DNA from: Deltaproteobacteria bacterium GWF2_42_12
Lineage (GTDB): Bacteria; Desulfobacterota; GWC2-55-46; UBA9637
NCBI GenBank assembly: GCA_001797665.1
Contig: MGQA01000002.1
Span: forward strand, 1,195 to 25,194
Direction: 5' to 3'
Length of the DNA stretch: 24,000 bases
Positions 4,470 through 17,171 of the stretch are shown here, in pieces; position 1 is the first letter of the stretch, and each line of letters opens with the position of its first letter. The notes beneath the pieces are model-generated. The model did not search any database, was not told the origin of the DNA, and saw nothing but the letters and a program-made list of their open reading frames with translations. The position numbers and the translations under genes were made by a program.

Positions 4470-6446
4470 TTATATTTTCGTAATATTCATCGGAAGCCTG
4501 AAGGTGAAGTTACTCCCCTTGCCAAATTCGCTCTCAACCCTGATACTACCGCCCTGCATTTCTACATACCTTTTTACAAGGACAAGACCAAGACCAGTTC
4601 CCTCCTGATCTCCGGTTGAGACCTGTTTAAATTCTTTGAATATGCTGCCCATATCTTCCCTTTTGATACCTACACCAGTATCAATCACCGAAACCTGAAG
4701 ATAATAGTTGTTGGACTTAACCTTAATGCTGACATGGCCGCCTTCCTGGGTAAATTTCACAGCATTGCTGATAAGATTATACATTATCTGCTTAAACATC
4801 CTTATATCAGCCACGATAGTATAAACATCAGGTGCTATTTCAACATCAATAGGTATTTTCTTCTTTATAGCCAAAGGAGTCACTATAGCGCATGCCTCTT
4901 TTATTCCATTGGAAACTAAAAAATCTTCTGGTTTTATCTCCATCTTTCCTGCCTCAATCTTTGACAGGTCAAGGATGTCATTTATTATATCGAGAAGATG
5001 TTTACCGCTCCGATAAATATACCCTATATATTCAGATTGCTTTTCATTCAGATCTCCACAAACCTTATCGTGGAGCAGCTCTGAAAATCCCAAAATGGAA
5101 TTAAGCGGCGTCCTCAGCTCGTGAGATACATTTGTGAGAAATTCTGACTTAAGACGGCTCATTACTTCCATCTCTTGATAGCCTTTTCTCAAAAACCCTG
5201 TCCTCTCCGAAATACGCTGTTCAAGTTCAGAATGTGTCTTGTTAATTTTTTCCACCATCTGATTGAATTTATTTGCAAGCTCCTCTATCTCATCATGTGT
5301 CTTAATATGGATACGGTGGTTTAAATTGCCTTCCCCAATTATCTCAACCCCTTGCCGAAGCGTCTCTATCGGCTTCACAATCTTTCTTGCCGCCCAGAAT
5401 CCCATAGCAGAGAGTATTAAAATAGAGAATATCAGTAGAAAAAAAACCCTCTTTAGCAAAACATAAATAGGGGCATAACTTTCATCCGGTGATTGACTGA
5501 CAAAGATATACCATTTGTTTCCATCAAAGGCATTCTTTACAATATCGGTCGTTGCAATAGGGGCAAATCCCGCAACAGCATTAATGCCTTCATGGGCATT
5601 ATCCTTAACAACCGCCCAGCCAAGTAACGGCGCTGTGGTAATATTATTCATCAGCTCGTCAGTAACCCTGTGAACCTGAGGCGGGAATATAGGACACAGG
5701 AGGATAATCCCAACGGAATTTATAAGCATTGCATGGCCTGTTTTTCCAATTCTGAATTTCTGCACTATCTTCGAAATCTTATCTATGGTACTAACTGCAC
5801 GAATAACTCCCAGCACCTTTCCTTCTTTCTCAGACATAATTGGCACTGCAACACTTTGTAGGAACTGATTGATATCAGGGTCAAGGTATATCTCGCTTAT
5901 GTAAATATCTCCTTTACCTTTATTATAGGCTGTCTGCCACCACTTCTCACTGCCATAGTATAAATACTTTGTCTTTCCTGCGGAGGCAACTAATACCCCT
6001 TTTGTGTCGGTTATAAAAAGCTCAACGTATCCCTCTGTATTTTTCTTTATTTCTGCTAAGTATTGCGCAGCCCGACTGGATACATACGCCCCAAAACGTT
6101 TTTCCTTGTCTCCATGCTGCAACCACTGCATATCAATTTTCTGGATATGCCTCTCTATTGACCCCTTATCTTTACCTGTATAGGATTCATTTGCTAATAT
6201 CGCTGCATTTCTTAAGACCGGTGAAATAGCAAGGCTTTTAACATCGTGAACAGATTGCTCCATAACAATTTCGGCGTTACTCGCTATCTCTTTAGCTACT
6301 CGCGCAAAATTTTCACCCGCACTTACTCTAAGCTCCCTCACCCCCTGCAGATAAACTAAAAGTATGCTTATCATGACAGGAAACATCCCTACGACAAATA
6401 TAAAAATGGCTATCCTGCGTTGAATCCCCTTTTTATGTATCTTCAT
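4470..6446 (-). CDS. Sensor histidine kinase (TM - Cache-like periplasmic domain - TM - HAMP - HisKA - HATPase_c)
   Basis: H-box SHELRTPLNSILGFSELL, G-box GTGLGLVLVKRYVEMQGG and a HAMP segment (IVKPIETLRQGVEIIGEGNLNHRI...). Two hydrophobic segments flank a ~300-aa extracytoplasmic region. Confidence 0.85.
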   Translation of the reverse strand: MKIHKKGIQRRIAIFIFVVGMFPVMISILLVYLQGVRELRVSAGENFARVAKEIASNAEIVMEQSVHDVKSLAISPVLRNAAILANESYTGKDKGSIERHIQKIDMQWLQHGDKEKRFGAYVSSRAAQYLAEIKKNTEGYVELFITDTKGVLVASAGKTKYLYYGSEKWWQTAYNKGKGDIYISEIYLDPDINQFLQSVAVPIMSEKEGKVLGVIRAVSTIDKISKIVQKFRIGKTGHAMLINSVGIILLCPIFPPQVHRVTDELMNNITTAPLLGWAVVKDNAHEGINAVAGFAPIATTDIVKNAFDGNKWYIFVSQSPDESYAPIYVLLKRVFFLLIFSILILSAMGFWAARKIVKPIETLRQGVEIIGEGNLNHRIHIKTHDEIEELANKFNQMVEKINKTHSELEQRISERTGFLRKGYQEMEVMSRLKSEFLTNVSHELRTPLNSILGFSELLHDKVCGDLNEKQSEYIGYIYRSGKHLLDIINDILDLSKIEAGKMEIKPEDFLVSNGIKEACAIVTPLAIKKKIPIDVEIAPDVYTIVADIRMFKQIMYNLISNAVKFTQEGGHVSIKVKSNNYYLQVSVIDTGVGIKREDMGSIFKEFKQVSTGDQEGTGLGLVLVKRYVEMQGGSIRVESEFGKGSNFTFRLPMNITKI

Positions 6447-7634
6447 TTAAATACTTTTTTTATCCTCGCCTATATTCCTGCCTATGCCTACAAGACCGAT
6501 AATATTGCCAGTCCTGTCCTCAAGACGCGAGAGCGTAAGACTTACGCGTATGATATCACCGCTTTTCTTCATAAGCTGCGCATCATAACCGGATATCTCT
6601 CCGTCCTCGATTACCTTCTTTCTTATCCGCTTATACTCACTCTTATTGACAAAAATATCTCCTATCTTGATTCCGCCAAGGTCTTCCTTGACATAGCCCA
6701 GTATGTTTTCAGCCCCTCTGTTAAACTGCACTATCTCATCATAGAGGGTTGTTGTGATAATCATATCTCCCGAATGTTCAAGAATATTTTCAAGGTATTC
6801 CTTTGTCTTTTCCAGCTCTGCTGTCCTTTCATCCACCATGGTCTCAAGCTCTTTGTTATACTTTTCAATCTGTTCCCTTGAGCTTTTTAATTCAACCAGC
6901 ATCTGATTGAACGAAGCAACTAATTCCCCGATTTCATCTGCAGACGACTTCTCCACCATTTTATCCAAATCGCCTTTCGCAACACTGGCAGCGGACATGG
7001 ATAATGCCCTTATTGGCGTAGTAATCTTTTGAGAAATATAAATAGATATTCCTATTCCCGCCAAAATAGCGATTATCGAAAATGTCAGAATCTGTTGCAG
7101 GCCCTTCCTCATATTATCGTTAGTCATAATAGTAACGTTATCCAGTGAGCGCCATGCCTCATCATACAGTCCATCAACACTGCTGATTATAACTGGCTTG
7201 GCCTTGTCCAATTCCTTGAGCACGCCAACGAGATTTGTGTTCCGCAAAGCTGCTGTCCACTTTAAGGATTGCTCTGTTAGATTTTGTATAGAGTCAAATT
7301 CAGCATCTACTTTTTCCAAGAAATCCTTTTCATGCTCCTTGAGTCGCAGTTTACGGACATACAAAAGCTTTTTTTTCACATCAAGCGTTAGAGAGCGATA
7401 ATAACCCACATCCTGAATCTGCCCTCTTACTAACGAATCACTGACATCAACAAATTGTTTAACAGACTGCCGCAAGCTGTTAACCGTGTCATATTTATGG
7501 GCAGAAACAAGTATTTGATTTACTGTTTTGTTGACATTAACAAGTGTGATATATGCGAAGATACTCACCATAATCATAAAGATTAGGACTGCTATATACC
7601 CAATCATTAATTTTGCCCTTATTGTCACCTTCAA
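6447..7634 (-). CDS. Membrane sensor protein: four-helix-bundle-like N-domain - HAMP - PAS, no output domain
   Basis: N-terminal TM segment, then a HAMP segment (TPIRALSMSAASVAKGDLDKMVEKSSADEIGELVASFNQMLVEL), a coiled coil and a C-terminal PAS-like domain. Its TAA stop (6447-6449) directly abuts the kinase ATG (6444-6446). Confidence 0.7.
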   Translation of the reverse strand: MKVTIRAKLMIGYIAVLIFMIMVSIFAYITLVNVNKTVNQILVSAHKYDTVNSLRQSVKQFVDVSDSLVRGQIQDVGYYRSLTLDVKKKLLYVRKLRLKEHEKDFLEKVDAEFDSIQNLTEQSLKWTAALRNTNLVGVLKELDKAKPVIISSVDGLYDEAWRSLDNVTIMTNDNMRKGLQQILTFSIIAILAGIGISIYISQKITTPIRALSMSAASVAKGDLDKMVEKSSADEIGELVASFNQMLVELKSSREQIEKYNKELETMVDERTAELEKTKEYLENILEHSGDMIITTTLYDEIVQFNRGAENILGYVKEDLGGIKIGDIFVNKSEYKRIRKKVIEDGEISGYDAQLMKKSGDIIRVSLTLSRLEDRTGNIIGLVGIGRNIGEDKKSI

Positions 7635-7655
7635 CGTCGTTACCTCCCGTTACCC

Positions 7656-8246
7656 TTATTTAAAATCCACTATAGCATCTTTCCCCTTTTCAACAGTCAC
7701 CGTATAAGAAGGGCTTACTTTCCTCTTATACCACATTTTGAAATCATAAACCCCCGGAGGCGCATCCTTTATCTCATACCTCCCCTGCTTGTCAGGGATA
7801 GCAAAATACGGATTCTGCAAAACCAGTATATAGCCCTCCATATCAGGATGGATGTTGCATAATAATGCTACCTCTCCGAGACGGTCAAATGTAAATGATC
7901 TCACTACTCCCTTGGGATAGGTGCCGAGATTAAATTTGTGCCCTGCCCATGACGGAGTAAAGATATTATTGAGCACATCATCGCTATTATGAAAATCAAC
8001 AGTAGTTCCTATGAGAATAGGAAGAACATACGGAACAAATATCAGTTCAATCTGGTCCATAACCGGATGCTTCTCTGGCGGTATAAATCCCCCTGGAGCT
8101 TTTTCGACATAAATAACTACTTTCCCCGCATCATCTTCACTCTTTAGCTTGACGGTTCCTCTAATAGTCTCGGCATGCGATATGCAGCTCAAAATAAGCA
8201 CTATTGCGCATGCGGCTAAATATCTCAACCGCAGAAGCGCTTTCAT
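7656..8246 (-). CDS. Secreted cupredoxin-like protein with C-terminal carboxypeptidase-regulatory-like beta-sandwich
   Basis: Signal peptide MKALLRLRYLAACAIVLILSCISHA from the ATG at 8246; the longer ORF from 8342 is unlikely. Candidate type-1 copper ligands are FHNSD ... LLCNIHPDM (H, C-x2-H-x2-M). Confidence 0.6.
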   Translation of the reverse strand: MKALLRLRYLAACAIVLILSCISHAETIRGTVKLKSEDDAGKVVIYVEKAPGGFIPPEKHPVMDQIELIFVPYVLPILIGTTVDFHNSDDVLNNIFTPSWAGHKFNLGTYPKGVVRSFTFDRLGEVALLCNIHPDMEGYILVLQNPYFAIPDKQGRYEIKDAPPGVYDFKMWYKRKVSPSYTVTVEKGKDAIVDFK

Positions 8247-8422
8247 CTGCAACGGCACAATCGCATACTTACCACTCCTGTCAAAAAATGCAACTGCATT
8301 TTTTGAGTTAAACAGTTTCTTGCTTATGTCTATTAAAATCATAGATGCTTCCCCCAGGTCTATGAGAAAGTATTATTGAAAAATTGAGGTGTTGTCATTG
8401 TATGGCGCTACAAGTATATTTT

Positions 8423-8579
8423 ACCCCGTTAGAGAAAGCCTCCGACTCCTCCGCCTGAGGCGGACGGTAGTATAAATCATTCCTTAGAGACGGTAGTTCA
8501 CCCCGTAAGAGACCAGAGGTCTTACGGTGGGCGCTGCCACTATCTTTGGTCGTTAGGAAACATAGTTCTCTAACGGGGT
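8423..8579. repeat. 157-bp element bounded by perfect 14-bp inverted repeats (candidate MITE or structured RNA)
   Basis: ACCCCGTTAGAGAA (8423-8436) is the exact reverse complement of TTCTCTAACGGGGT (8566-8579). Internal hairpins include CCGCC-TGA-GGCGG and CCGTAAGAGACC-AGA-GGTCTTACGG. Confidence 0.55.
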
Positions 8580-8625
8580 TTACACGGCATTCTCGCAGAG
8601 CGAATTGGCATAAGAAAATGTTGGC

Positions 8626-9924
8626 TTAAAAGACAAAATCAAGTTTAACTATGCCCAGGTCCCCCTCGCCACCTGTGGTATGCAGCGCCCCTTCGATAGT
8701 AAGCTTTATATTTGCGCGAACCAGCGCCAACAAGCTTACAACCACTTCATCTTTATTTTCCTTCTCATGTTCTATATCAGCTACTCCATACCTCACCGCT
8801 GCAATAAGCCAAGGATAAATGGCAAGGTCGGCTTCAGAAAAATAGGAACTTACAGAGGTATCACTAAAATTGCCACTCGGATTACTATGCTCCCCCTGAA
8901 TAACCGCGCCAAACAGATTAAAAATTTTATAATTGAAGTCAAAGGTAAAGCCATACCTATAGAAATTATCGTCATACGTGCTGTTTGAAACAACCACTTT
9001 ATTTTTGCCTGAATAACCTATTACGCCAACATATAGCGATTTTTCATCCTTTACCTCTGGCAGGACATCTTCTTTGTCTGAGATAAGGCCAGAACCATCC
9101 AGGCCAATGCCGCCGAACTTATATCCAACCTTAAGACAGGCGTCCTTTGTCGTATTATTGTCTGCAGAGTTGGTTGTGGAATCTGTCTTCCCTGTACCGT
9201 TGCCATTAACTATGCCCACTGCATATTCTAAGCGGCTCTCTATAATGCCATCTATCTCTATGCCTCGCTGATTTGAGAAGTTAAAGCTGTTTTTCCCGAC
9301 TGTAAACGTATTAATGAGATATGGCGCATATGTTAAACGGCGATTATTGGAGACCGGGACTGCTGACGGTTCGAATTGACCGATAGTCACATTCAAAAGG
9401 CGGTCAGGAAGCGAGCTGCTGAATGTATCATTAAACTTCAGGAAAAAACGCCACAAACCGCCGAACTCATTTCCACTTCTAATAAGAGAAACACTGCCAA
9501 AAAAAGATACATCTTCACCGAGTGTTCCAGCTGATTCAAGCGCTATGGTACTTGGAAAGGTAAAATCATGCTTTACCCGAGAGTTTACATCATATCGGTA
9601 AAACAAACTTCCAAATAAAGAAAGGGGTATTGCCCCAGGAATCTCGCCTGGCCAGATTCCTTCAGGCCAAACCTCTTTCCACGCCGGAGCGCCCAAGCTG
9701 ACAGGTTTCTCCTTAACATAGCGTTCGTCAACCTCTGGGATCTGGTATCCGTTTCTTCTGAACGCCTCACCAAAGGCATTAAGTTTTGGAAAAGCTGCAT
9801 GACATGTTGTGCAGCTCGTCTTATACTTTCTTGCAAAGGCTGGTATAGCCTCTGCATTTGTCCTAAAAATGGAAGTTATTAAACAGATAATTAAAATAAT
9901 AAGTATAGATTTAATCAGTCTCAT
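8626..9924 (-). CDS. Outer-membrane beta-barrel protein with N-terminal CxxCH haem-binding motif
   Basis: Signal peptide (MRLIKSILIILIICLITSIFRTNAEA), a CTTCH motif about 12 residues into the mature protein, alternating beta-strand-like sequence, and a C-terminal ...VKLDFVF aromatic terminus typical of OMPs. Confidence 0.6.
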   Translation of the reverse strand: MRLIKSILIILIICLITSIFRTNAEAIPAFARKYKTSCTTCHAAFPKLNAFGEAFRRNGYQIPEVDERYVKEKPVSLGAPAWKEVWPEGIWPGEIPGAIPLSLFGSLFYRYDVNSRVKHDFTFPSTIALESAGTLGEDVSFFGSVSLIRSGNEFGGLWRFFLKFNDTFSSSLPDRLLNVTIGQFEPSAVPVSNNRRLTYAPYLINTFTVGKNSFNFSNQRGIEIDGIIESRLEYAVGIVNGNGTGKTDSTTNSADNNTTKDACLKVGYKFGGIGLDGSGLISDKEDVLPEVKDEKSLYVGVIGYSGKNKVVVSNSTYDDNFYRYGFTFDFNYKIFNLFGAVIQGEHSNPSGNFSDTSVSSYFSEADLAIYPWLIAAVRYGVADIEHEKENKDEVVVSLLALVRANIKLTIEGALHTTGGEGDLGIVKLDFVF

Positions 9925-10319
9925 GGATTGTTGTAGAATTATTTTTTAACATTCGTATACAAATTTGGGGTTTTATTTTAGCATAAAGTAAGAATATTTT
10001 TCACTAAAAATACCTTACCCAAAAATAGCGTTTGATTTTTGGGGAAACCGCCCCCGATTGATTCTATCGGGGGTTGTCAGACGAGGCAGAGGCCATCCCT
10101 GATAAAAGCACTCAGGGACATGTTTTTGCGACGAGCCCTCCCCCTTTTCTGGGGACAGATTTGAAATCTGTCCCCACAGGGGGACAGGGGGAGGATACGG
10201 TGAGGAGCAAAAATGCGCCGACCAAGCTAAGCTTGGTCAAGGCACGCTGAGCGTGTCGATAACGAAGTATGCCTGTCCCCGAGTGTCTCTATCGGGGAGC
10301 AGGCAAATCGCAGGTTTGT

Positions 10320-10348
10320 AAAATAGCGAAGTTTTTAATCGCTATTTT
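10320..10348 (-). terminator. Hairpin 10 nt downstream of the AMMECR1 stop (possible intrinsic terminator)
   Basis: AAAATAGCGA-AGTTTTTAA-TCGCTATTTT gives a 10-bp stem whose 3' arm ends in a U-run on either strand. The stem is AT-rich, so termination strength is uncertain. Confidence 0.4.
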
Positions 10349-10357
10349 ACGGCCTTA

Positions 10358-10903
10358 TCAATCGCCTTCGCCAAACACCTCTGCCTCAAATGTATATATA
10401 TCAGCCCCATCCTTCCAGCCGTCAGATGGAAGACCTGCCTTAAGGCAAGTATGTTCTAAAAATGTTTCTTTGTCCCAGCAACACTCTACTGCGACCTGCG
10501 GGAGAAGAACGCCTCTGCAATACCCCTTTACAATATACAGACCATCCCTCCCAACCTCTATTTCAGTAGTATCTTTTACCTTTTTTAGCGCCGTAAGACA
10601 AGATATCTCTATGGTAATCAGTGATAGTTCAGTTGCAGTAAGCGGAATAAATCTGGGGTCCTGCGTAGCAGTGGCAACAGCCATGTCTACAACAGTGAGA
10701 TAAAGGGGTTTTTCTGACGCAAAGATGCCTATACACCCCCTCAAATTGCCCTTTGTCTTTATAGAAACAAATGCCCCACGATGTTCCAGAAGCGCCGGGC
10801 TGCTCACATTGAAAGGAGGAATCTTTTTAGTCTTAATATAAGATTCAATCGTCTCCCTTACTATTTTTAAGAGGAGCAATTTATCTTCTTTTGAAAGGGG
10901 CAT
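10358..10903 (-). CDS. AMMECR1-domain protein
   Basis: LRGCIG and LLPQVA motifs characteristic of AMMECR1. The likely start is the ATG at 10903 (MPLSKEDK...). Confidence 0.8.
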   Translation of the reverse strand: MPLSKEDKLLLLKIVRETIESYIKTKKIPPFNVSSPALLEHRGAFVSIKTKGNLRGCIGIFASEKPLYLTVVDMAVATATQDPRFIPLTATELSLITIEISCLTALKKVKDTTEIEVGRDGLYIVKGYCRGVLLPQVAVECCWDKETFLEHTCLKAGLPSDGWKDGADIYTFEAEVFGEGD

Positions 10904-10917
10904 AATACTATTTCGGA

Positions 10918-11493
10918 TTATAATACATCTCCGCAAAAATTACGATATTCGCAGTCAAGACATTTGGCCGGAGAATTTACCGGAGGCGGAATTTGCTGGC
11001 AGTGTATCATTTTTCGGATATCGTCTAATAAATTTTTTGTTTCCTCTTTGACTTTGCCGGTTAAATCAAAAACCACAGCATCCTCTTTTGGAATTAAGTA
11101 TACAAAACCCTTATCAACATTGCGATTATATACATCTTCCAAAATTATAGCATAACCCAAAAGCTGATAAAGATGATTTTTGTGCGGCTGAGAGGTTGTA
11201 TATTTAAAATCCACAGGATAATAAGAATCTTTGGTTTTAATTAGCAAATCCACCTTGCCGGATAAAGCATATCTCTCAGAATATAATTGCTTATGAAATT
11301 CTCTCGTGCCGCTGGATAAGCCGTATTCCTTAAGTTTCCTTCTGTTTTCTAATCTGTCTATCTTATCCTCTGCTATCTTTCCATATTCCATCTTAAAGGT
11401 TGCCTTTTTCTCAACAGGCATAACATAGTTATAGAACACAACCCTTTGACAATAGACAAACTGTTTAAGGTCGCTAACCCTGAGATGAATCAT
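10918..11493 (-). CDS. cas4: CRISPR-associated Cas4 (RecB-like exonuclease with Fe-S Cys cluster)
   Basis: N-terminal ...DLKQFVYCQR..., DFKYT (D..K nuclease motif), QLLGYAIILE (QhxxY) and C-terminal CLDCEYRNFC. The preferred start is the ATG at 11493 (MIHLRVSDL..., AGGAAA upstream). The ORF is open up to 11580 and overlaps the cas2 3' end. Confidence 0.85.
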   Translation of the reverse strand: MIHLRVSDLKQFVYCQRVVFYNYVMPVEKKATFKMEYGKIAEDKIDRLENRRKLKEYGLSSGTREFHKQLYSERYALSGKVDLLIKTKDSYYPVDFKYTTSQPHKNHLYQLLGYAIILEDVYNRNVDKGFVYLIPKEDAVVFDLTGKVKEETKNLLDDIRKMIHCQQIPPPVNSPAKCLDCEYRNFCGDVL

Positions 11494-11752
11494 CTCTATT
11501 TTCCTGTATGAGTTCCCTTTTGGCATTGATGTCTTTTTCACAAACAGGGAGCATAAGGAGTTTTCCGGCTTTATCGCCAATGAGAAAGGAAAGCTTTAAA
11601 AAAAGTTCTTCGCGCTTATTTTTGCCCAACGTGCCTGAAAATCCGCTAAATTGAATCCTTTGAAGCCCATAGTCTTTGCAGGTCTCTGCCACCTTATTGC
11701 GGATGCCGTCGTCTTCTATGTCATAGAAAATATAAACAGTATGTTCTCCCAT
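11474..11752 (-). CDS. cas2: CRISPR-associated endoribonuclease Cas2
   Basis: 92 aa with VYIFYDIEDD...RNKV...YGLQRIQFSGFSG, the canonical Cas2 ferredoxin-fold signature. It lies between cas1 and cas4. Confidence 0.85.
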   Translation of the reverse strand: MGEHTVYIFYDIEDDGIRNKVAETCKDYGLQRIQFSGFSGTLGKNKREELFLKLSFLIGDKAGKLLMLPVCEKDINAKRELIQENRDDSSQG

Positions 11753-11777
11753 AATTAGTTGAAAAATGCTTTTATAT

Positions 11778-11904
11778 AGTTCACGCTCAAAAATTGCACA
11801 GATGCAAGGCGCCGAGGAGCGAGCAGCGGAGCATACGCTTTTAGGTATGTGAGCAGCGCAGCGACGAAGGCAACGCAGCAGATGGGCATTTTTCAGCGTG
11901 AACT
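11778..11904. repeat. ~127-bp palindromic (MITE/REP-like) element, copy B, between cas1 and cas2
   Basis: The ends AGTTCACGCTCAAAAATTGCACAGATGC and GCAGATGGGCATTTTTCAGCGTGAACT are inverted repeats. It is the same family as 1896-2023, in opposite orientation. It starts 2 nt after the cas1 stop and ends 25 nt before the cas2 ATG. Confidence 0.8.
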
Positions 11905-11906
11905 AA

Positions 11907-13100
11907 TTACCACTTAAACCTGAACGCCTTATATTCTCTCCTGCCGCTTAAAAAAGCCGATAGGTTTCTTGCCTGCATCTGGATAATAGACCTGATTTTA
12001 TATTTCTTGCCTTCAAATGTTTCCTGGCTTTCCAGCCTTTCTATAATTTTGCTTCCCATTGTCTTTCTTGTTTCCTCTTCAATCAATCCATTTTTCATGT
12101 TAATGGATTCTCCGAGGTTGATATGGGCAATTACAACCTTATCAACAACAGGCTGGCGGAATTCTTCAATCAGATCCAGAACAAGAGACGGCTTGCCGGG
12201 CCTGTCCACATGCAGAAATCCCGCAAATGGCTCAAGACCTGCATTTATAATTGCTCCCCAGACATGCGAATAGAGAATGCCATAACCATAATTTAAGAGA
12301 GAGTTTACCTTATCCACTGCCCCTCTTGTCTCACGGCCGAAAAACTCAACCTTTCCTGCAATAATCTCTTTGACCGCGCCCCAATATAACCTGCCTGATA
12401 TACCCTCTATTGCCATCAAACCACCTCTTGCATCTTCAATATTTTGCCCATCAATATTATCTACCTGTCCGCTCATCTTTTTAATATCATCAGCAATTCC
12501 TTCAAGTTTATTAAATCTGTCAATATCTACGGTCTTAATATACTTGCCAAAATATCTTATAAGCCTTTCCTGATTTACAATCTTTCCTTCTACAACCGCC
12601 TTTGAGAATTCAAGCCCCCTTTCATCATTAAACGCCATAATCTGCTCTCTTCTGGATACAACCGTTGCGGAGAGCATGGGCGAGGAAAGCATTGCATACG
12701 GTTTGCCGCCATTTGTCAAAAAATTCAGTCTTATCCCCCTTTGGCATAACTCTTCAACAAGGTCAGAGGATAATGACATCCCACGAGAGGCGACAATAAC
12801 CTCATTCAGTCTAAAAAAGGGAAATTCATAAATAACCTTACTGCTCTTTTTTACAATAAGGCGTTCACTCTTTTTACTTAAGAAGATGCCAAAACCTGAC
12901 AGAACTATTTGCGACGAATCTCCGCTCTGCACAAGCGAAATCCCATCGTCAACAAATATTTCATCATCAATATTTTTGTCAATCAGTTGCGGGACTGGCT
13001 CTGCTTCTCCTGTAAAGAGATTGAACTGTGCTGGCGGGAGTTTTTCCTCCGGTTGATATTCCGGATGGATGCGGAGGATTTTTGATGTTTCATTATCCAT
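11907..13100 (-). CDS. cas1: CRISPR-associated integrase Cas1 (with ~60-aa acidic N-terminal extension)
   Basis: NSLLNYGYGIL and GFLHVDRPGKPSLVLDLIEEFRQPVVD motifs. The ATG at 13100 is preceded by GAGGAGG. The ORF-track start at 13175 lacks an SD. Confidence 0.9.
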   Translation of the reverse strand: MDNETSKILRIHPEYQPEEKLPPAQFNLFTGEAEPVPQLIDKNIDDEIFVDDGISLVQSGDSSQIVLSGFGIFLSKKSERLIVKKSSKVIYEFPFFRLNEVIVASRGMSLSSDLVEELCQRGIRLNFLTNGGKPYAMLSSPMLSATVVSRREQIMAFNDERGLEFSKAVVEGKIVNQERLIRYFGKYIKTVDIDRFNKLEGIADDIKKMSGQVDNIDGQNIEDARGGLMAIEGISGRLYWGAVKEIIAGKVEFFGRETRGAVDKVNSLLNYGYGILYSHVWGAIINAGLEPFAGFLHVDRPGKPSLVLDLIEEFRQPVVDKVVIAHINLGESINMKNGLIEEETRKTMGSKIIERLESQETFEGKKYKIRSIIQMQARNLSAFLSGRREYKAFRFKW

Positions 13101-13194
13101 ATAGACCTCCTCAATATTTTCTTGATTTTTGAGGTTATGTGGTGTAACTATAAAGCAGTATACGCCATATTGCAAGCCTTACGGTGGAACATAT

Positions 13195-13431
13195 ATGAAG
13201 TTAACATATGATCCGAGATACAACATAGCTTATATTCGCCTGCATGAAAAACCAGCACAAGTGGAGACTGTGAAAATCAGCGATGAACTGAACATAGATT
13301 TGGCGCCTGATGGAACGGTCTATGGCATAGAATTGCTGAATGCCAATGAACAGTTGAAAAAAGAGGATGAGGGTAAACTCCTTGTTATTAATGAATCTAC
13401 AGGCAAGACAGCCGAAGTATCATTAGCATGA
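13195..13431 (+). CDS. DUF2283-like small protein (YuzE-like)
   Basis: MKLTYDPRYNIAYIRLHEKP...IDLAPDGTVYGIELLNA is the typical DUF2283 pattern. It is on the opposite strand to the cas genes and ends 26 nt before the first CRISPR repeat. Confidence 0.6.
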   Translation: MKLTYDPRYNIAYIRLHEKPAQVETVKISDELNIDLAPDGTVYGIELLNANEQLKKEDEGKLLVINESTGKTAEVSLA

Positions 13432-13457
13432 GTTTCGTTTCAGTGTGGTATTATGAA

Positions 13458-13860
13458 GTTACAGTTAAGGCTCTTTGAAAATATGGCGTGAAACATACAC
13501 AAATCCGAGCTCATGGTTGCCATTTTCAATCGTTACAGTTAAGGCTCTTTGAAAATATGGCGTGAAACAACTTTCGGGGCGGCCTTCCGCACAGATTGAG
13601 GAACGTTACAGTTAAGGCTCTTTGAAAATATGGCGTGAAACTTCTGAGCAGGCGGCCTACCGCAGGTATAAGAAGGAGTTACAGTTAAGGCTCTTTGAAA
13701 ATATGGCGTGAAACTTATAAAGGCGGGATGCGCCTTGCACCGCTTCACACAGTTACAGTTAAGGCTCTTTGAAAATATGGCGTGAAACATCTGCCCACGC
13801 ATATCTCCTTCGAGAAGATCGAAGTTACAGTTAAGGCTCTTTGAAAATATGGCGTGAAAC
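13458..13860 (+). CRISPR. CRISPR array: 6 identical 37-bp repeats (GTTACAGTTAAGGCTCTTTGAAAATATGGCGTGAAAC), 5 unique spacers of 37/36/36/37/35 bp
   Basis: Repeats counted directly at 13458, 13532, 13605, 13678, 13752 and 13824. The repeat is non-palindromic, as expected for type II. The strand is tentative and rests on the anti-repeat geometry; see findings. Confidence 0.97.
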
Positions 13861-13949
13861 AGCTATTGTTTTGCTGGAATTTCAAAGGGATTTTCAAAAA
13901 CAATTTATAAAATTTCCGCAAGACCATTTTTTGAAACAAACCTTAAGGG

Positions 13950-14080
13950 GTTTGCGAAATTTTAAAAGAGCCTTAATTGTAAAACGCCTATACAGTGAAG
14001 GGATATACGCTTGGGTTTGTCCAGCCTGAGCCTCTATGCCAGAAATGGCGCCTTCATCGTGGGTTAGGACATTTAATTTT
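13950..14080 (+). ncRNA. Candidate tracrRNA: 36-nt anti-repeat plus ~95-nt structured tail
   Basis: 13950-13985, GTTTGCGAAATTTTAAAAGAGCCTTAATTGTAAAAC, is an imperfect reverse complement of the full repeat, with 12 contiguous matches (AAAGAGCCTTAA). The downstream tail has hairpins (e.g. GCCA-GAAA-TGGC) and ends in ATTTAATTTT just before the cas9 stop. Strand and ends are not established. Confidence 0.5.
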
Positions 14081-14085
14081 AAAAA

Positions 14086-16329
14086 CTATTCAGCACTGTT
14101 TGCTTTTGTCAGCTTGGTGGCAGAGACAGTTCTTGTTTTTCCATCACTACCAACAACTGCTTCTATCGTAGGAGATGTTCCGAGTTTTTTTATTCTATAG
14201 ATTGCGTCTTCACCTTCAACTGTAACCATATCTCTTCGTTTTAAGGTAAATGAAACTCTCCCATTAGGCTGCGGTGGTGGTTCTATGAAGTGTTTTGACA
14301 GTCTCGGATTCTTTCGCTCATATGCTTTTTTCTTACCTTTTTCATCAAGATAAACATCCACGCCAACATTATGGACATTCGTCTTAAAAACATTATTATT
14401 GATTCTTATCATCTGCCCTGGCCCGGTTCCTTTAATGCTGCATTTAAGGCTCATAACCAATTCATTCTTCTTAATGCAAAAACCTGCTTCCTTTGCCTCC
14501 TTGTCTGTTAAACATTTTCCTTTTTTCGTATCAAATCGTTTAAAAGCCTCTTTTAGTTTTTCACGATATGTCTCGGAAATAACATCGTCTTCTTTACCGC
14601 ACTCAATCTCTGTAACCATAAATCTTCTGGTAATAATGCCCTTCTTATAAGACAGTGGGTTTCTATCATGCAATGCAGAGCCCTTGCTGCCTTTATCCCT
14701 TTTAAATTCTATCGGTTCAGGAAGGTGTTTTTCAGAGTCAAACCCTCCACCTTTATTATATTTTGGCTTAAGGGTCATATCCACCAATCCATCATCACTA
14801 TACCCTTTCCTTGAAGCAAGGATTACAGCATCAAGGGCATGATGAAGGGTGTTGCCTCTTTCCTTTTTAAATCCCCACCACCTCCTGAAATATGCAGTGT
14901 ATATGCCGCTCTGCCTCTCTATGGGCAACTTTTTATTGCCGGCAGACTCTCTTAGTCTGTCCCTCATATATCTCCAGCCGATAGAGGCATGGGACATGTA
15001 TTTATTAAAATCTACTGTATTGATATTTCGTGCGTCCTCAAGAATCTTTTTCTTTAAATCATTCTTCATGAAGGCTATTATTTCGGGTTTAGGCGAGATT
15101 CCACTTTCTAACGGAGTTCTCCCTTTTTTATTCTCATTACATACAGCGCAACATGCTACTAAATTTGCAAAGATATTTAAGCCCCCGGCCTTTCGGGGAA
15201 ATATATGGTCATCATGCGCATTGGATATGTCAATAGATTTTCCACAGTAGATACATCTACCATCCGTTTCTCGAAGAAGGGCTTCCTTTCTGGTCTCTTT
15301 GCCTTCCCTGGGCCCTTTACCATATTCTTCTTTTGCCAATCGTTTTTTCCCCTGTGTTTTGGCTGCTATATCAAAATTGTTGCTCTCCATTACCACCTTA
15401 TTGACAGTAAATTTGGGCAATATCTCGTCTTTAATAACAGCAAGGACATTCTCTATTTTTGTTTTTAAGGATGGCGCAAGACGGAAAACCTTTCGTTCCT
15501 CTTTGCTATGCTCAGTATGTTCAAGGATATGTTCTTTGCAAAAGACCGTTCTACCCGAAAGCTTGTTATCCGCTATATCATAAACCTGCTTCCTAATATG
15601 TTCATCAGTCTTATGTTTTCTGAAAAATGATTTAACTTCTTCCCTCCTGTTTTTATCAAGCACAGCATCTTTGAGATTATCCTTTTCAGATTGTTCTATA
15701 GGGAAAAATCTGACTATATTTTCTATAAGCAAATCTCTCACATTCTTTCTGAGCGGCGTATTAACTCCGCAATCTTCTACCTTACATTTAGTTAAAATCC
15801 TATTATTGAATCTTTTAGGTCGGTACTGTTTATTAAAAATCCTTTCAACCCTTTTTATCTGCTCCTCGGTTGCTCTTCCTTCAATCATTGCTTTATGGAC
15901 ATCTTTTACGACTTCTTTCCTGTGCCTTGAATTTCTTTTTGTCTCTTCCCATTCCTGTTTCTCTTTTTCCCACTGTTTGCGCTCTTCCACATCCATTGCC
16001 TCTATTTCTTCGGAAGTCTTTTCTTCAGGCATATCAGCATAATCATATCCTCTTTTATGGGCAAGGCTGTAAACCGTTTCAAATGTTGCTGTGGATTCGT
16101 TATATCCAATACTTTTTAGATAGTTTTTTAATTCACGCAGCCGCTTTTTCTTGGTTTGAGCGGTTCTTCTGATACCTCTTTGCTTTCTGCGATCTTTGAG
16201 AATACCAGCGACATCGTCCCGCATCTTCAGTCTGTTTGCATATAATACCTGATTATGCCTTCGGTCAACAACTGCAAGACCGGTATATTTGCCGCCGTAA
16301 TCAATGCCTAAAACAAGTTCTCTTTCCAT
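14086..16329 (-). CDS. cas9: Compact Cas9-like RuvC/HNH effector nuclease, 747 aa
   Basis: Ruv[18 protein letters not shown] (D10); Arg-rich bridge helix [26 protein letters not shown] (aa 45-70); Ruv[12 protein letters not shown] (E315). HNH CIYCG...[13 protein letters not shown]...[18 protein letters not shown] (D374/H375, N398). Ruv[17 protein letters not shown] (H497, D500). It sits next to the array, the anti-repeat and cas1/cas2/cas4. Confidence 0.9.
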
Positions 16330-16416: not shown

Positions 16417-16977
16417 CTACTGATTTATGGTTTTTAATATGTCCTCAAAGGTTTTCAGAAAATCCTTATTGCCAATTGATGCGTCAAACTCCTTTAACCA
16501 ACCCTGTATATATCTAATGTCAATATCAGGATTTTTTAAGAGGATTGTCCTTGCATCCTCTAAATCCCTCGGCCGTCCTGCAAATATTTTGTGTATTATG
16601 ACATCTTCTACAGAGGCAAAGCATACTTCCTGATTGAGAATATTTATACTCTTTGCCCTCTTTATCGCCTCTGTTTCATAAGGCGTAAATGAGAATATAA
16701 AGTCAACCCGTATGCCTGTAGTTTCATCCAGCGCCGGCAAGACCATAGTCTGCTTGACGAATGATTCTATGTCTTCTGGTATGGGCTTGAGTGGTATTTT
16801 TTGAAGGATTGCAAGAAGTTGATTAAGGTGATTTGTATCAACGCCGAGGGTTATATCAATATCTCTTGTGAGCCGCGGTTCTCCATACAGCAATACAGCC
16901 TGTCCGCCTATAATCATGTAGGGAATATTGCACTTAACAAGCGCTGCGCCTATCCTTGCGAGGATTTCTTCAAACAT
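16417..16977 (-). CDS. Minimal nucleotidyltransferase-fold protein (AbiEii/DUF6036-like, toxin-like)
   Basis: The N-terminal IIGGQAVLLYGEPRLTRDIDI pattern (GG-x-A...R-x-T-x-D-x-D) is typical of pol-beta superfamily minimal NTases. A small overlapping ORF precedes it. Confidence 0.55.
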   Translation of the reverse strand: MFEEILARIGAALVKCNIPYMIIGGQAVLLYGEPRLTRDIDITLGVDTNHLNQLLAILQKIPLKPIPEDIESFVKQTMVLPALDETTGIRVDFIFSFTPYETEAIKRAKSINILNQEVCFASVEDVIIHKIFAGRPRDLEDARTILLKNPDIDIRYIQGWLKEFDASIGNKDFLKTFEDILKTINQ

Positions 16978-17171
16978 GAATTGAGCACCTGTGCTATCTT
17001 TATATCAACTTCTATTCCTTCTAATGGTTTCTTGGGAGGCAATATTCCGAGTTTTATCCCTTCATTCCAGAGAGATTCAAATATGCGCATAGAGTAACTA
17101 AAAGAAAGCCTTCCCTCTTTTTTCATGATTGTGTCTTCAAATTTTTTTAATAGTTGGGTATCTTTTATCAT
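16950..17171 (-). CDS. Small hypothetical protein (73 aa), possible partner/antitoxin of the downstream NTase
   Basis: The ORF overlaps the NTase start by 28 nt in a TA-like two-gene layout. No recognisable motif. Confidence 0.4.
   Translation of the reverse strand: MIKDTQLLKKFEDTIMKKEGRLSFSYSMRIFESLWNEGIKLGILPPKKPLEGIEVDIKIAQVLNSCLKKSSQG

Follow-up and report, generated by a model that had tools for sequence, protein, structure and literature searches.

[quoted passage not shown] Such a system is not new and has been thoroughly studied in the form of Cas9d-MG34-1 (Aliaga Goltsman et al. 2022, PMC9755519), for which the literature reports an NGG PAM, a staggered cut, RNA-seq of the array and tracrRNA, interference in E. 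coli and cryo-EM structures (PMC9755519, PMC11706934, PMC11903963), and base editors exist. The structures are 9AUF, 8W2Z and 8W2S (PMC11706934) and 8ZQ9 and 8ZDR (PMC11903963). The published enzyme is modestly active, with about tenfold plasmid interference in E. coli and no indels in human cells. [quoted passage not shown]

Three other groups invite comparison. The effectors of type II-C systems, such as those of Neisseria and Campylobacter, have been described as the closest evolutionary relatives of Cas9d, but they are about 980-1100 aa long, their loci are without cas4 and their repeats carry promoters. Type II-B systems, such as that of Francisella novicida, combine cas1-cas2-cas4 with a Cas9-family effector, and II-B Cas9s are among the largest, at about 1,400-1,600 aa. 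IscB/OMEGA nucleases share the RuvC-HNH core, with a large structured RNA taking the role of REC domains, but they come without a CRISPR array, tracrRNA or adaptation genes, and Cas9d adds REC, WED and PI elaborations to the core.

Locus organization

We analyzed a 24,000-nt stretch of DNA (the window) and found in it a 747-aa RuvC/HNH effector, an anti-repeat, six identical 37-nt repeats, and cas1, cas2 and cas4. An earlier note on this DNA had placed each of these elements, and ORFs, repeat searches and profiles confirmed the coordinates. All cas genes, whose ORFs are intact, lie on the - strand; the array and tracrRNA run the other way, on the + strand, converging with cas9d. Judged by its genes and RNA elements, the type II-D CRISPR-Cas locus is complete and intact, and its Cas9d is compact. 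We put the probability at about 95% that it is the native chromosomal II-D locus of the uncultivated groundwater deltaproteobacterium represented by MAG GWF2_42_12, and that it encodes a natural Cas9d-MG34-1 allele. The window shares with MG34-1 a deltaproteobacterial groundwater origin and the same content of array, tracrRNA, cas1, cas2 and cas4.

The order cas9d, tracrRNA/array, cas1-cas2-cas4 is kept in four related MG34-type loci (L002, L003, L004 and L007). GC content across the locus is 38-41%, which a composition scan showed not to be anomalous beside the flanks. No tRNAs were found in the window and no transposon ends were seen at the locus. Three insertions specific to the strain lie within or beside the module: a DUF2283 gene breaks it between the array and cas1, and a 129-bp MITE-like element does so between cas1 and cas2.

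The novelty that the earlier note implied does not hold, since the locus of this enzyme appeared in print in 2022 and GenBank already has the exact effector protein. It is OGP48943.1, labelled a hypothetical protein under a 2016-era MAG accession, and its source is the Rifle groundwater MAG Deltaproteobacteria bacterium GWF2_42_12.

The effector

The cas9d gene (14086..16329, - strand) encodes 747 aa that run through RuvC-I/BH/REC, RuvC-II, HNH, RuvC-III, WED and PI regions. Pfam identified RRXRR in the RuvC-I region and HNH at residues 359-406, and the RuvC-III motif HHALDA is present. The protein passed the NCBIfam CRISPR_Cas9d model NF049971 with 530.7 bits against a cut-off of 375. It has the same length as the MG34-1 chains in PDB entries 8W2S, 8W2Z, 9AUF, 8ZQ9 and 8ZDR and is identical to them at 743/747 positions (99.5%). 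The differences are limited to G529E, S532P, R544M and K549R, four substitutions within residues 529-549; the window, as the GWF2_42_12 allele, has G529, S532, R544 and K549.

Both catalytic residues that the dead construct 8ZDR has mutated, D10 and H375, are present, and the published PAM-contact residues K649, N651 and K715 are identical. With R698 and D555-N557 also present, the published PAM and phosphate-lock residues are all kept. At 747 aa, with a split RuvC, an inserted HNH and its catalytic residues, the protein sits within the range of about 600-970 aa of compact effectors. The NsCas9d effector is about 71% identical. On these matches the effector belongs to the Cas9d clade, which upholds the II-D/Cas9d resemblance that the earlier note had pointed out. 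The window allele would be expected to carry out guided dsDNA cleavage next to a 3' PAM, as MG34-1, only four residues apart, does.

Alleles of cas9d in the same population are mosaic, with three variant blocks (residues 395-469, 529-549 and 669-745) reshuffled between strains. The last of these touches the PI domain next to R698.

tracrRNA and CRISPR array

The tracrRNA (about 13950..14080, + strand) consists of the anti-repeat followed by a long structured scaffold, as expected of II-D, and was recognised by an exact MG34-1 sgRNA match, conservation and covariation. The anti-repeat (13950-13982/85) pairs with nearly the whole repeat, with one 3-nt gap, and the cofold of the two has an energy of -62.2 kcal/mol. 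Window positions 13967-14080 (+) reproduce, without a single mismatch, the 114-nt tracr portion of the MG34-1 sgRNA that was published and is active in experiments (Supplementary Data 3 of PMC9755519). The RNA ends in a U-tract 5 nt before the stop codon of the convergent cas9d. The region is conserved in 7 loci, with compensatory changes in 6 of the 30 predicted pairs, and the NsCas9d tracrRNA is about 90% identical over 123 nt. At gathering thresholds Rfam had no match across the window, the locus giving only a chance miRNA match (E = 0.84), and it contains no model that fits this tracrRNA. A metagenome scan with the tracrRNA core found one locus only, L008. The earlier note had regarded the system as functional and self-contained, a view supported by the 99.5% identity to characterised MG34-1 together with the identical validated tracrRNA.

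The CRISPR array (13458..13860, + strand) holds six identical copies of the 37-nt repeat GTTACAGTTAAGGCTCTTTGAAAATATGGCGTGAAAC, at 13458, 13532, 13605, 13678, 13752 and 13824, and five unique spacers of 35-37 nt. Repeat matches with ≤3 mismatches numbered 6, versus 0.00 expected from 100 shuffles. The array lies 225 nt from the cas9d stop codon, adjacent to the effector gene as in II-D. The crRNA sense strand is the + strand: the crRNA part of the MG34-1 sgRNA, GUUACAGUUAAGGCUCU, is the same as the 17 nt with which the + strand repeat begins. The 5' half of the repeat is the same in NsCas9d, while the 3' half differs.

Unlike II-C repeats, the window's II-D repeat has no conserved -10 motif in evidence. 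We considered repeat-embedded promoters of the II-C kind, but the repeat has a weak TGnAAATAT motif that L005 does not conserve, and the idea was unsupported.

Between the last repeat and the anti-repeat lies a conserved 89-nt segment (13861..13949, + strand) with blocks invariant across 7 loci whose effectors are 65-100% identical. We consider it a probable tracrRNA promoter. It is probably also the integration leader of the array, because the way strains diverge in their spacers and the place where repeats degenerate both suggest that acquisition takes place at that end.

Adaptation genes and spacer acquisition

Profile HMMs, the check that the earlier note had proposed, recovered all three adaptation genes along with the HNH and RRXRR/RuvC domains of the effector. 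The 397-aa cas1 (11907..13100, - strand) scored 225 bits with Pfam Cas_Cas1, 240 bits with TIGR00287 and 274.6 bits with PADLOC Cas1_II, its best PADLOC match; it failed the II-A/C-type cas1_NMENI model (82 versus 120). Its ORF spans 11907-13175 (-), but, as in the earlier note, the start is best placed at the ATG at 13100; GAGGAGG stands just before it. Cas1 has an N-terminal extension of ~65 aa before the Cas1 fold, the Pfam match beginning at residue 91 of the 422-aa ORF, and its full-length identity to Cas1 of the four related loci is 80-96%. Type II-D is also marked by a monophyletic Cas1 branch, in which the window's Cas1 may fall. The 92-aa cas2 (11474..11752, - strand) scored 56 bits with Pfam CRISPR_Cas2 and 47 bits with TIGR01573. 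The cas4 ORF of 220 aa (10918..11580, - strand) scored 110.9 bits with the NCBIfam model TIGR00372 (cut-off 65), 134.5 bits with PADLOC Cas4_II and 61 bits in Pfam. Its true start is probably the ATG at 11493 or 11526; gene callers give a protein of 191 or 202 aa, and the likely protein overlaps the end of cas2. Thus cas1, cas2 and cas4 are intact and above curated cut-offs, as a II-D adaptation module should be, and their order is the same in the four related loci.

Upstream of cas1, a consensus scan identified a candidate cas1-cas2-cas4 promoter (13101..13175, - strand) with TTGCAA-17-TATAGT, a 5' UTR and the GAGGAGG ribosome-binding site. In our reading the L003 and L004 flanks show the same layout, and at the level of consensus this is a probable promoter for the three genes. 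A + strand candidate in the gap between cas1 and the DUF2283 gene, TTGATT-17-TAACTA, had been considered as an array leader promoter; it was dropped because the sequence conserved in L003 and L004 fits the cas1-strand promoter and 5' UTR better.

The DUF2283 gene (13195..13431, + strand; 78 aa; Pfam PF10049, 49.8 bits) is missing from the four related loci, where the array abuts cas1, and by this comparison is a strain-specific passenger outside the conserved system. The MITE-like palindromic element (11777..11905) has 18-nt terminal inverted repeats and folds into a hairpin of -46.8 kcal/mol (z = -3.95). The cas1/cas2 gap of relatives is only 4-7 nt, so this element too is strain-specific. 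A second MITE-like copy lies at about 1895-2024 of the window.

In type II-C the entry point for spacers is the last repeat, the one furthest downstream in transcription, and it is the first repeat that degenerates; MG34-type arrays showed the same pattern. This II-C-like polarity was observed in related contigs, not in the window. Three strain arrays (L010, 15-16-17-18-19-20-21; L015, 15-18-19-22; L028, 17-18-...) agree in their spacers towards cas1 and diverge towards the tracrRNA. In L003-L005 the degenerate repeats are found on the cas1 side, and it is the tracrRNA-side flank that is conserved. New spacers most likely enter at the tracrRNA-proximal, transcription-downstream end, as in II-C, although the pattern in the three strain arrays could also be explained by deletions alone.

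We weighed whether the interference arm works while the adaptation arm is quiescent or impaired in the window strain, with its insertions and a frozen five-spacer array. About 15 assemblies, drawn from several samples, have the 1-2-3-4-5 spacer array unchanged, so no recent acquisition was seen in the window strain. PAM-proximal 22-mers of all five spacers had no exact match in IMG/VR, mismatch-tolerant blastn found no target for any spacer in phage and plasmid collections, and the window holds no self-targets with ≤8 mismatches; the native PAM therefore lacks independent confirmation from spacer targets. These results agree with a quiescent adaptation arm, as do the DUF2283 and MITE insertions absent from relatives, and the MITE-like insertion could be polar on cas2-cas4. 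Nevertheless, all cas ORFs are intact, with Cas1, Cas2 and Cas4 well above cut-offs, and if acquisition is tracrRNA-proximal, the DUF2283 insertion sits harmlessly at the trailer end. Moreover, L008, L010 and L015 carry the same two insertions but different arrays, which indicates that spacer turnover occurred with the insertions in place. We regard a quiescent or impaired adaptation arm as unlikely.

Alternative assignments

That the effector might be a transposon-associated IscB/OMEGA nuclease merely lying beside an unrelated array and adaptation genes is suggested by the shared RRXRR/RuvC and HNH core, by a partial match to the IscB model NF040563 (95.1 bits) and by matches to PDB IscB chains at E of about 1e-12. 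The 95.1 bits fall short of the IscB cut-off of 175, whereas the Cas9d cut-off was passed. The locus has an array, a tracrRNA and adaptation genes, its anti-repeat complements the adjacent repeats, the linkage to array and cas1-cas2-cas4 is kept in four other genomes, and we saw no transposon ends. An identical tracrRNA guides Cas9d-MG34-1, and because this sgRNA match is exact we give an IscB origin practically no credence.

A truncated or degenerate II-B or II-C Cas9 locus, to which cas4 (as in II-B, with Cas4_II and Cas1_II the best PADLOC matches) and the II-C-like polarity and convergent array might point, is refuted by full-length identity with an active enzyme: 747 aa is the length of the active, solved protein, WED and PI run to the C terminus, and relatives of 735-778 aa share the architecture. 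The classical Cas9 model TIGR01865 gave 70.9 bits against a cut-off of 100 and covered only the HNH/RuvC-III core. The effector is half the size of II-B Cas9s and falls in a different clade; cas4 sets the locus apart from II-C, which it resembles only in array polarity. The compact type II system outside II-A, II-B and II-C described in the earlier note is thus what we find, in a full-length protein below the classical cut-off, and not the truncated II-A/B/C fragment that the note had named as evidence against itself. The note's statement that cas4 accompanies only II-B is outdated, II-D now being defined by cas9d with cas1-cas2-cas4.

Discussion

The type II-D assignment suggests how the system would work. 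Transcription of the array (13458-13860) and tracrRNA (about 13950-14080) would proceed on the + strand, towards the convergent cas9d; the anti-repeat would pair with each repeat, and the duplexes would be processed, presumably by host RNase III. Cas9d would then bind the crRNA:tracrRNA, the large folded tracrRNA scaffold standing in for the missing REC domains, and would recognise a 3' NGG PAM via K649, N651 and K715. The guide would be about 18-22 nt of the repeat-proximal end of the spacer. The break would be staggered, the target strand being cut by HNH at a distance of 3 nt from the PAM and the non-target strand by RuvC at 6-7 nt. Cas1-Cas2, together with Cas4, would insert new spacers, most likely tracrRNA-proximally. 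For MG34-1, 99.5% identical and with the same tracrRNA, the PAM, cut sites, guide length, in situ transcription and structure have been shown experimentally (PMC9755519, PMC11706934, PMC11903963). For the window strain we infer RNase III processing, the promoters, the end at which spacers are acquired, and that the system is active.

Contig L025/L016 follows the window at 99.98% identity until 18 nt short of the array; beyond that point it has a Cas12f/TnpB-like gene, at the position that the array, tracrRNA and cas9d occupy in the window. The gene may be an insertion or a replacement. Elsewhere the L025 effector family always lies between cas2 and a CRISPR array. The full-length L025 Cas12f-like ORF is not on record; we found only the fragments P0016 and P0017 and relatives 72-74% identical. 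One tentative, somewhat doubtful reading of this contig and of the mosaic cas9d alleles is that in this groundwater population cas1-cas2-cas4 may sit at a recombination hot spot where effector modules are exchanged, and that L025/L016 could be an in situ swap from II-D to a type V-like effector with the adaptation genes left as they were.

The window provides context, not discovery: it shows where in a genome a near-identical allele of a compact editor already in use naturally resides. It documents the native strand and layout of crRNA and tracrRNA, and it shows an MG34-type II-D locus with the full cas1-cas2-cas4, whereas the introduction of one structure paper says that II-D lacks this module. 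The natural variants in the three Cas9d blocks could inform engineering. Observations from related contigs, rather than from the window itself, namely array polarity, effector mosaicism and the possible Cas12f-like replacement, bear on the shuffling of class 2 effector and adaptation modules.

Results

In profile searches, the 747-aa effector encoded at 14086-16329 on the minus strand showed an HNH domain and an RRXRR/RuvC N-terminus, and it scored 530.7 bits on the NCBI curated Cas9d model, for which the cut-off is 375. Its scores fell under the cut-off for IscB (95 vs 175) as well as for the classical Cas9 model (71 vs 100 bits). The likeness to the II-D/Cas9d lineage, which the earlier note had drawn, was borne out, as was its placement of the system outside II-A/B/C. 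The PDB chains 8W2S, 8W2Z and 9AUF (PMC11706934) and 8ZQ9 and 8ZDR (PMC11903963), all from cryo-EM structures of Cas9d-MG34-1, were near-identical to the window effector across all 747 residues. A residue-by-residue comparison with MG34-1 found four differences, G529E, S532P, R544M and K549R. The dead construct 8ZDR carries D10A and H375A as further changes relative to the window effector, which marks D10 and H375 as catalytic; the window effector retains both. The residues published as contacting the PAM (K649, N651, K715) and the backbone (H653, N654, R698) were also kept, as was the published phosphate-lock loop, D555-N557. The identical protein is in GenBank as OGP48943.1, annotated 'hypothetical protein' in the MAG of Deltaproteobacteria bacterium GWF2_42_12, and Rifle groundwater metagenome contigs carry the exact protein as well.

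The ORF list, together with repeat and profile searches, recovered every element that the earlier note had assigned to the locus: effector, anti-repeat, 6-repeat array, cas1, cas2 and cas4. The array comprised six identical 37-nt repeats, starting at 13458, 13532, 13605, 13678, 13752 and 13824, and five spacers of 35-37 nt, all unique. A repeat search with 3 mismatches allowed gave six matches, where shuffled sequences led us to expect none, and an inverted copy of the repeat, the anti-repeat, was located at 13950-13982/85. We compared this region with the active MG34-1 sgRNA (Supplementary Data 3 of the discovery paper, PMC9755519). The tracrRNA part of that sgRNA (114 nt) was an exact match to 13967-14080 on the plus strand, and its crRNA part (17 nt) was the beginning of every plus-strand repeat. 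Because these matches lie on the plus strand, the array and tracrRNA are transcribed on that strand, convergent with cas9d, which adds to the earlier account of the locus. The U-tract of the tracrRNA ends 5 nt short of the cas9d stop codon. Cofolding of repeat and tracrRNA predicted a long duplex followed by nested stems; the tracrRNA was strongly conserved in seven related loci, and compensatory changes occurred in 6 of its 30 predicted pairs. Separately, spacers 2 (13578-13591) and 3 (13651-13664) have GGCGGCCT[T/A]CCGCA in common, at 13 of 14 bases and the same offset from the repeat, and may represent two variants of one target or a chance likeness.

Profile matches to Cas1, Cas2 and Cas4 identified the ORFs at 11907-13175, 11474-11752 and 10918-11580, respectively, all on the minus strand. 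The cas1 start proposed at 13100 held, being an ATG with GAGGAGG just ahead of it. Residues 1-65 of Cas1 (12900-13100, minus strand) form an N-terminal extension of about 65 aa ahead of the Cas1 fold. The extension falls within full-length alignments to the Cas1 proteins of four related loci (L002, L003, L004 and L007) and appears, from these alignments, to be a feature of MG34-type II-D Cas1. In all, we found six related genomic loci, including the NsCas9d source contig, with effector identities of 65-91%. The order in L002, L003, L004 and L007 was that of the window: cas9d came first, followed by the oppositely oriented tracrRNA and array and finally by cas1-cas2-cas4. The placement of the array between effector and adaptation genes, correctly described before, is therefore the family norm. 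The accompanying statement that cas4 occurs only with II-B is out of date, since the 2025 classification (PMC12669027) defines subtype II-D as Cas9d with cas1, cas2, cas4 and a tracrRNA. A 432-aa protein encoded at 8626-9924 (minus strand), which has a signal-like segment at its N terminus and contains CTTCH, a CxxCH motif, gave no Pfam match and is kept beside the locus in all Rifle contigs.

Three insertions set the window apart from its relatives. A solo DUF2283 gene (78 aa; 13195-13431, plus strand) separates cas1 from the array; it is missing from L002, L003, L004 and L007, and the cas1-array gap in relatives is only about 86 nt. In a related contig, L028, the DUF2283 gene is preceded by a 110-aa ORF (5650-5982) with a weak DUF4258 match of 19.9 bits, below the cut-off. 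Because of this weak DUF4258-like partner, the window gene looks like an orphan, and it may be the antitoxin-like remnant of a DUF4258/DUF2283 toxin-antitoxin pair. The second insertion, a MITE-like palindromic element of about 129 bp (11777-11905), fills the gap between cas1 and cas2, which spans 4-7 nt in relatives. It has 18-nt terminal inverted repeats, TAGTTCACGCTSAAAAAT, and a hairpin of -46.8 kcal/mol (z = -3.95), and a second copy lies at about 1895-2024, between the glutamate synthase genes GATase_2 and Glu_synthase. The third, at 16417-17171 on the minus strand between NUDIX and cas9d, consists of a DUF6036/AbiEii-type nucleotidyltransferase gene (186 aa) and an overlapping upstream 73-aa ORF with no family match; the two are probably an inserted toxin-antitoxin pair. 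In L006, another related locus, the DUF6036/AbiEii gene is missing and NUDIX abuts cas9d.

To describe variation in cas9d, we compared 14086-16329 with L002:8001-10316, L008:1902-4238 and cluster members P0002-P0015. Against L002, DNA identity was 87-89% in the first ~450 nt and 55-76% over the REC/RuvC-II/HNH/RuvC-III part, then rose abruptly to 96-98% from about 14700 (residue ~545) through WED, PI and the tracrRNA; cas1 and cas2 were 86-99% identical. Divergence from L008 was confined to a hypervariable stretch (residues ~195-295) and a second, short one around residue 420. Substitution blocks at 395-469, 529-549 and 669-745 occurred in varying combinations among the 747-aa alleles that belong to the same 90% cluster. 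Adding the middle block (529-549) to the window allele gives MG34-1 itself, and block 669-745 brings R699G and D700N beside the PAM-region residue R698. On the pattern of these alignments, cas9d is a mosaic between strains. Several scaffolds contain N-gaps within cas9d, consistent with population heterogeneity there.

The window-type array (spacers 1-5) was identical in about 15 assemblies, and other arrays exist in strains with the window's cas1-side flank. Three such contigs had spacer orders 15-16-17-18-19-20-21 (L010), 15-18-19-22 (L015) and 17-18-... (L028), with common spacers cas1-proximal and differing spacers tracrRNA-proximal. L003, L004 and L005 had degenerate repeats at the cas1-proximal end, and the 89 nt from the last repeat to the anti-repeat (13861-13949) were conserved across the family. 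Taken together, the spacer sharing in these few strains, the degenerate repeats and the conserved flank suggest that MG34-type II-D arrays acquire spacers at the tracrRNA-proximal, transcription-downstream end.

A contig from sample ERZ27254739, represented by L025/L016, matched 6,245 nt of the window (7195-13439) at 99.98% identity and departed from it 18 nt ahead of the first II-D repeat. An ORF beginning 97 nt past the divergence point and continuing to the contig end encodes the first 153 residues of a Cas12f/TnpB-like protein (L025:6246-6795, equal to L016:1-546, the counterpart of the window from 13440 on) and takes the place of the array, tracrRNA and cas9d seen in the window. This contig stops inside the ORF; the gene may have been inserted next to a II-D array, or it may have replaced the II-D effector module. 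No full-length copy of this ORF is on record. One full-length member of its family, 506 aa long and similar to Cas12f, passes the TnpB-family model; it was found in a minimal locus (L029, 1769-4213) after cas4-cas1-cas2 and before a 7-repeat array. Relatives of ~500 aa lie between cas2 and arrays of 42 repeats (L030, 6091-10865) and 27 repeats (L031, 8001-11900), each at the end of a type I-B-like locus that includes cas7, cas5 and cas3. All three arrays have one common repeat, CTTTCATCTGAACCATGTGGGATATAAAG (CTTTCATCTG...-type array), which was not found in the window. In these loci the gene always directly follows cas2 (or a PIN/PhD pair), about 460 nt ahead of the array; it may encode a second effector that uses the same array, or it may be an insertion beside the array.

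Discussion

Published experiments on MG34-1 established an NGG PAM, staggered ends from cuts 3 nt (target strand) and 6-7 nt (non-target strand) from the PAM, optimal guides of 18-20 nt, in situ transcription of array and tracrRNA, plasmid interference in E. coli, and a folded guide RNA that stands in for REC domains. From the identical RNA and identical functional residues, we infer that the window allele would work by the same mechanism. Processing of crRNA and tracrRNA would fall to RNase III, transcription would start from putative promoters, and the system would be active in this particular strain.

Downstream-end acquisition is the published arrangement in type II-C, and its occurrence in II-D, on which we found no statement in the literature, is a plausible and modest extension of that pattern. 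Array polarity, cas9d mosaicism and the Cas12f-like lead are notable, but they concern related contigs rather than the window itself.

Our analysis confirmed the observation of a complete miniature type II locus and supported its interpretation. The system is already known: the enzyme, of which the window carries a natural allele, has been published, solved structurally and engineered, and its type of locus is published too. The introduction of PMC11706934 describes type II-D systems as being without cas1, cas2 and cas4. For this lineage the description is contradicted by the locus in the window, which is native to an allele nearly identical to MG34-1, and the discovery paper (PMC9755519) counts the MG34-1 locus, shown in its Fig. 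1d, among those that have adaptation genes. By the window locus and the 2025 classification (PMC12669027), a full adaptation module is present.
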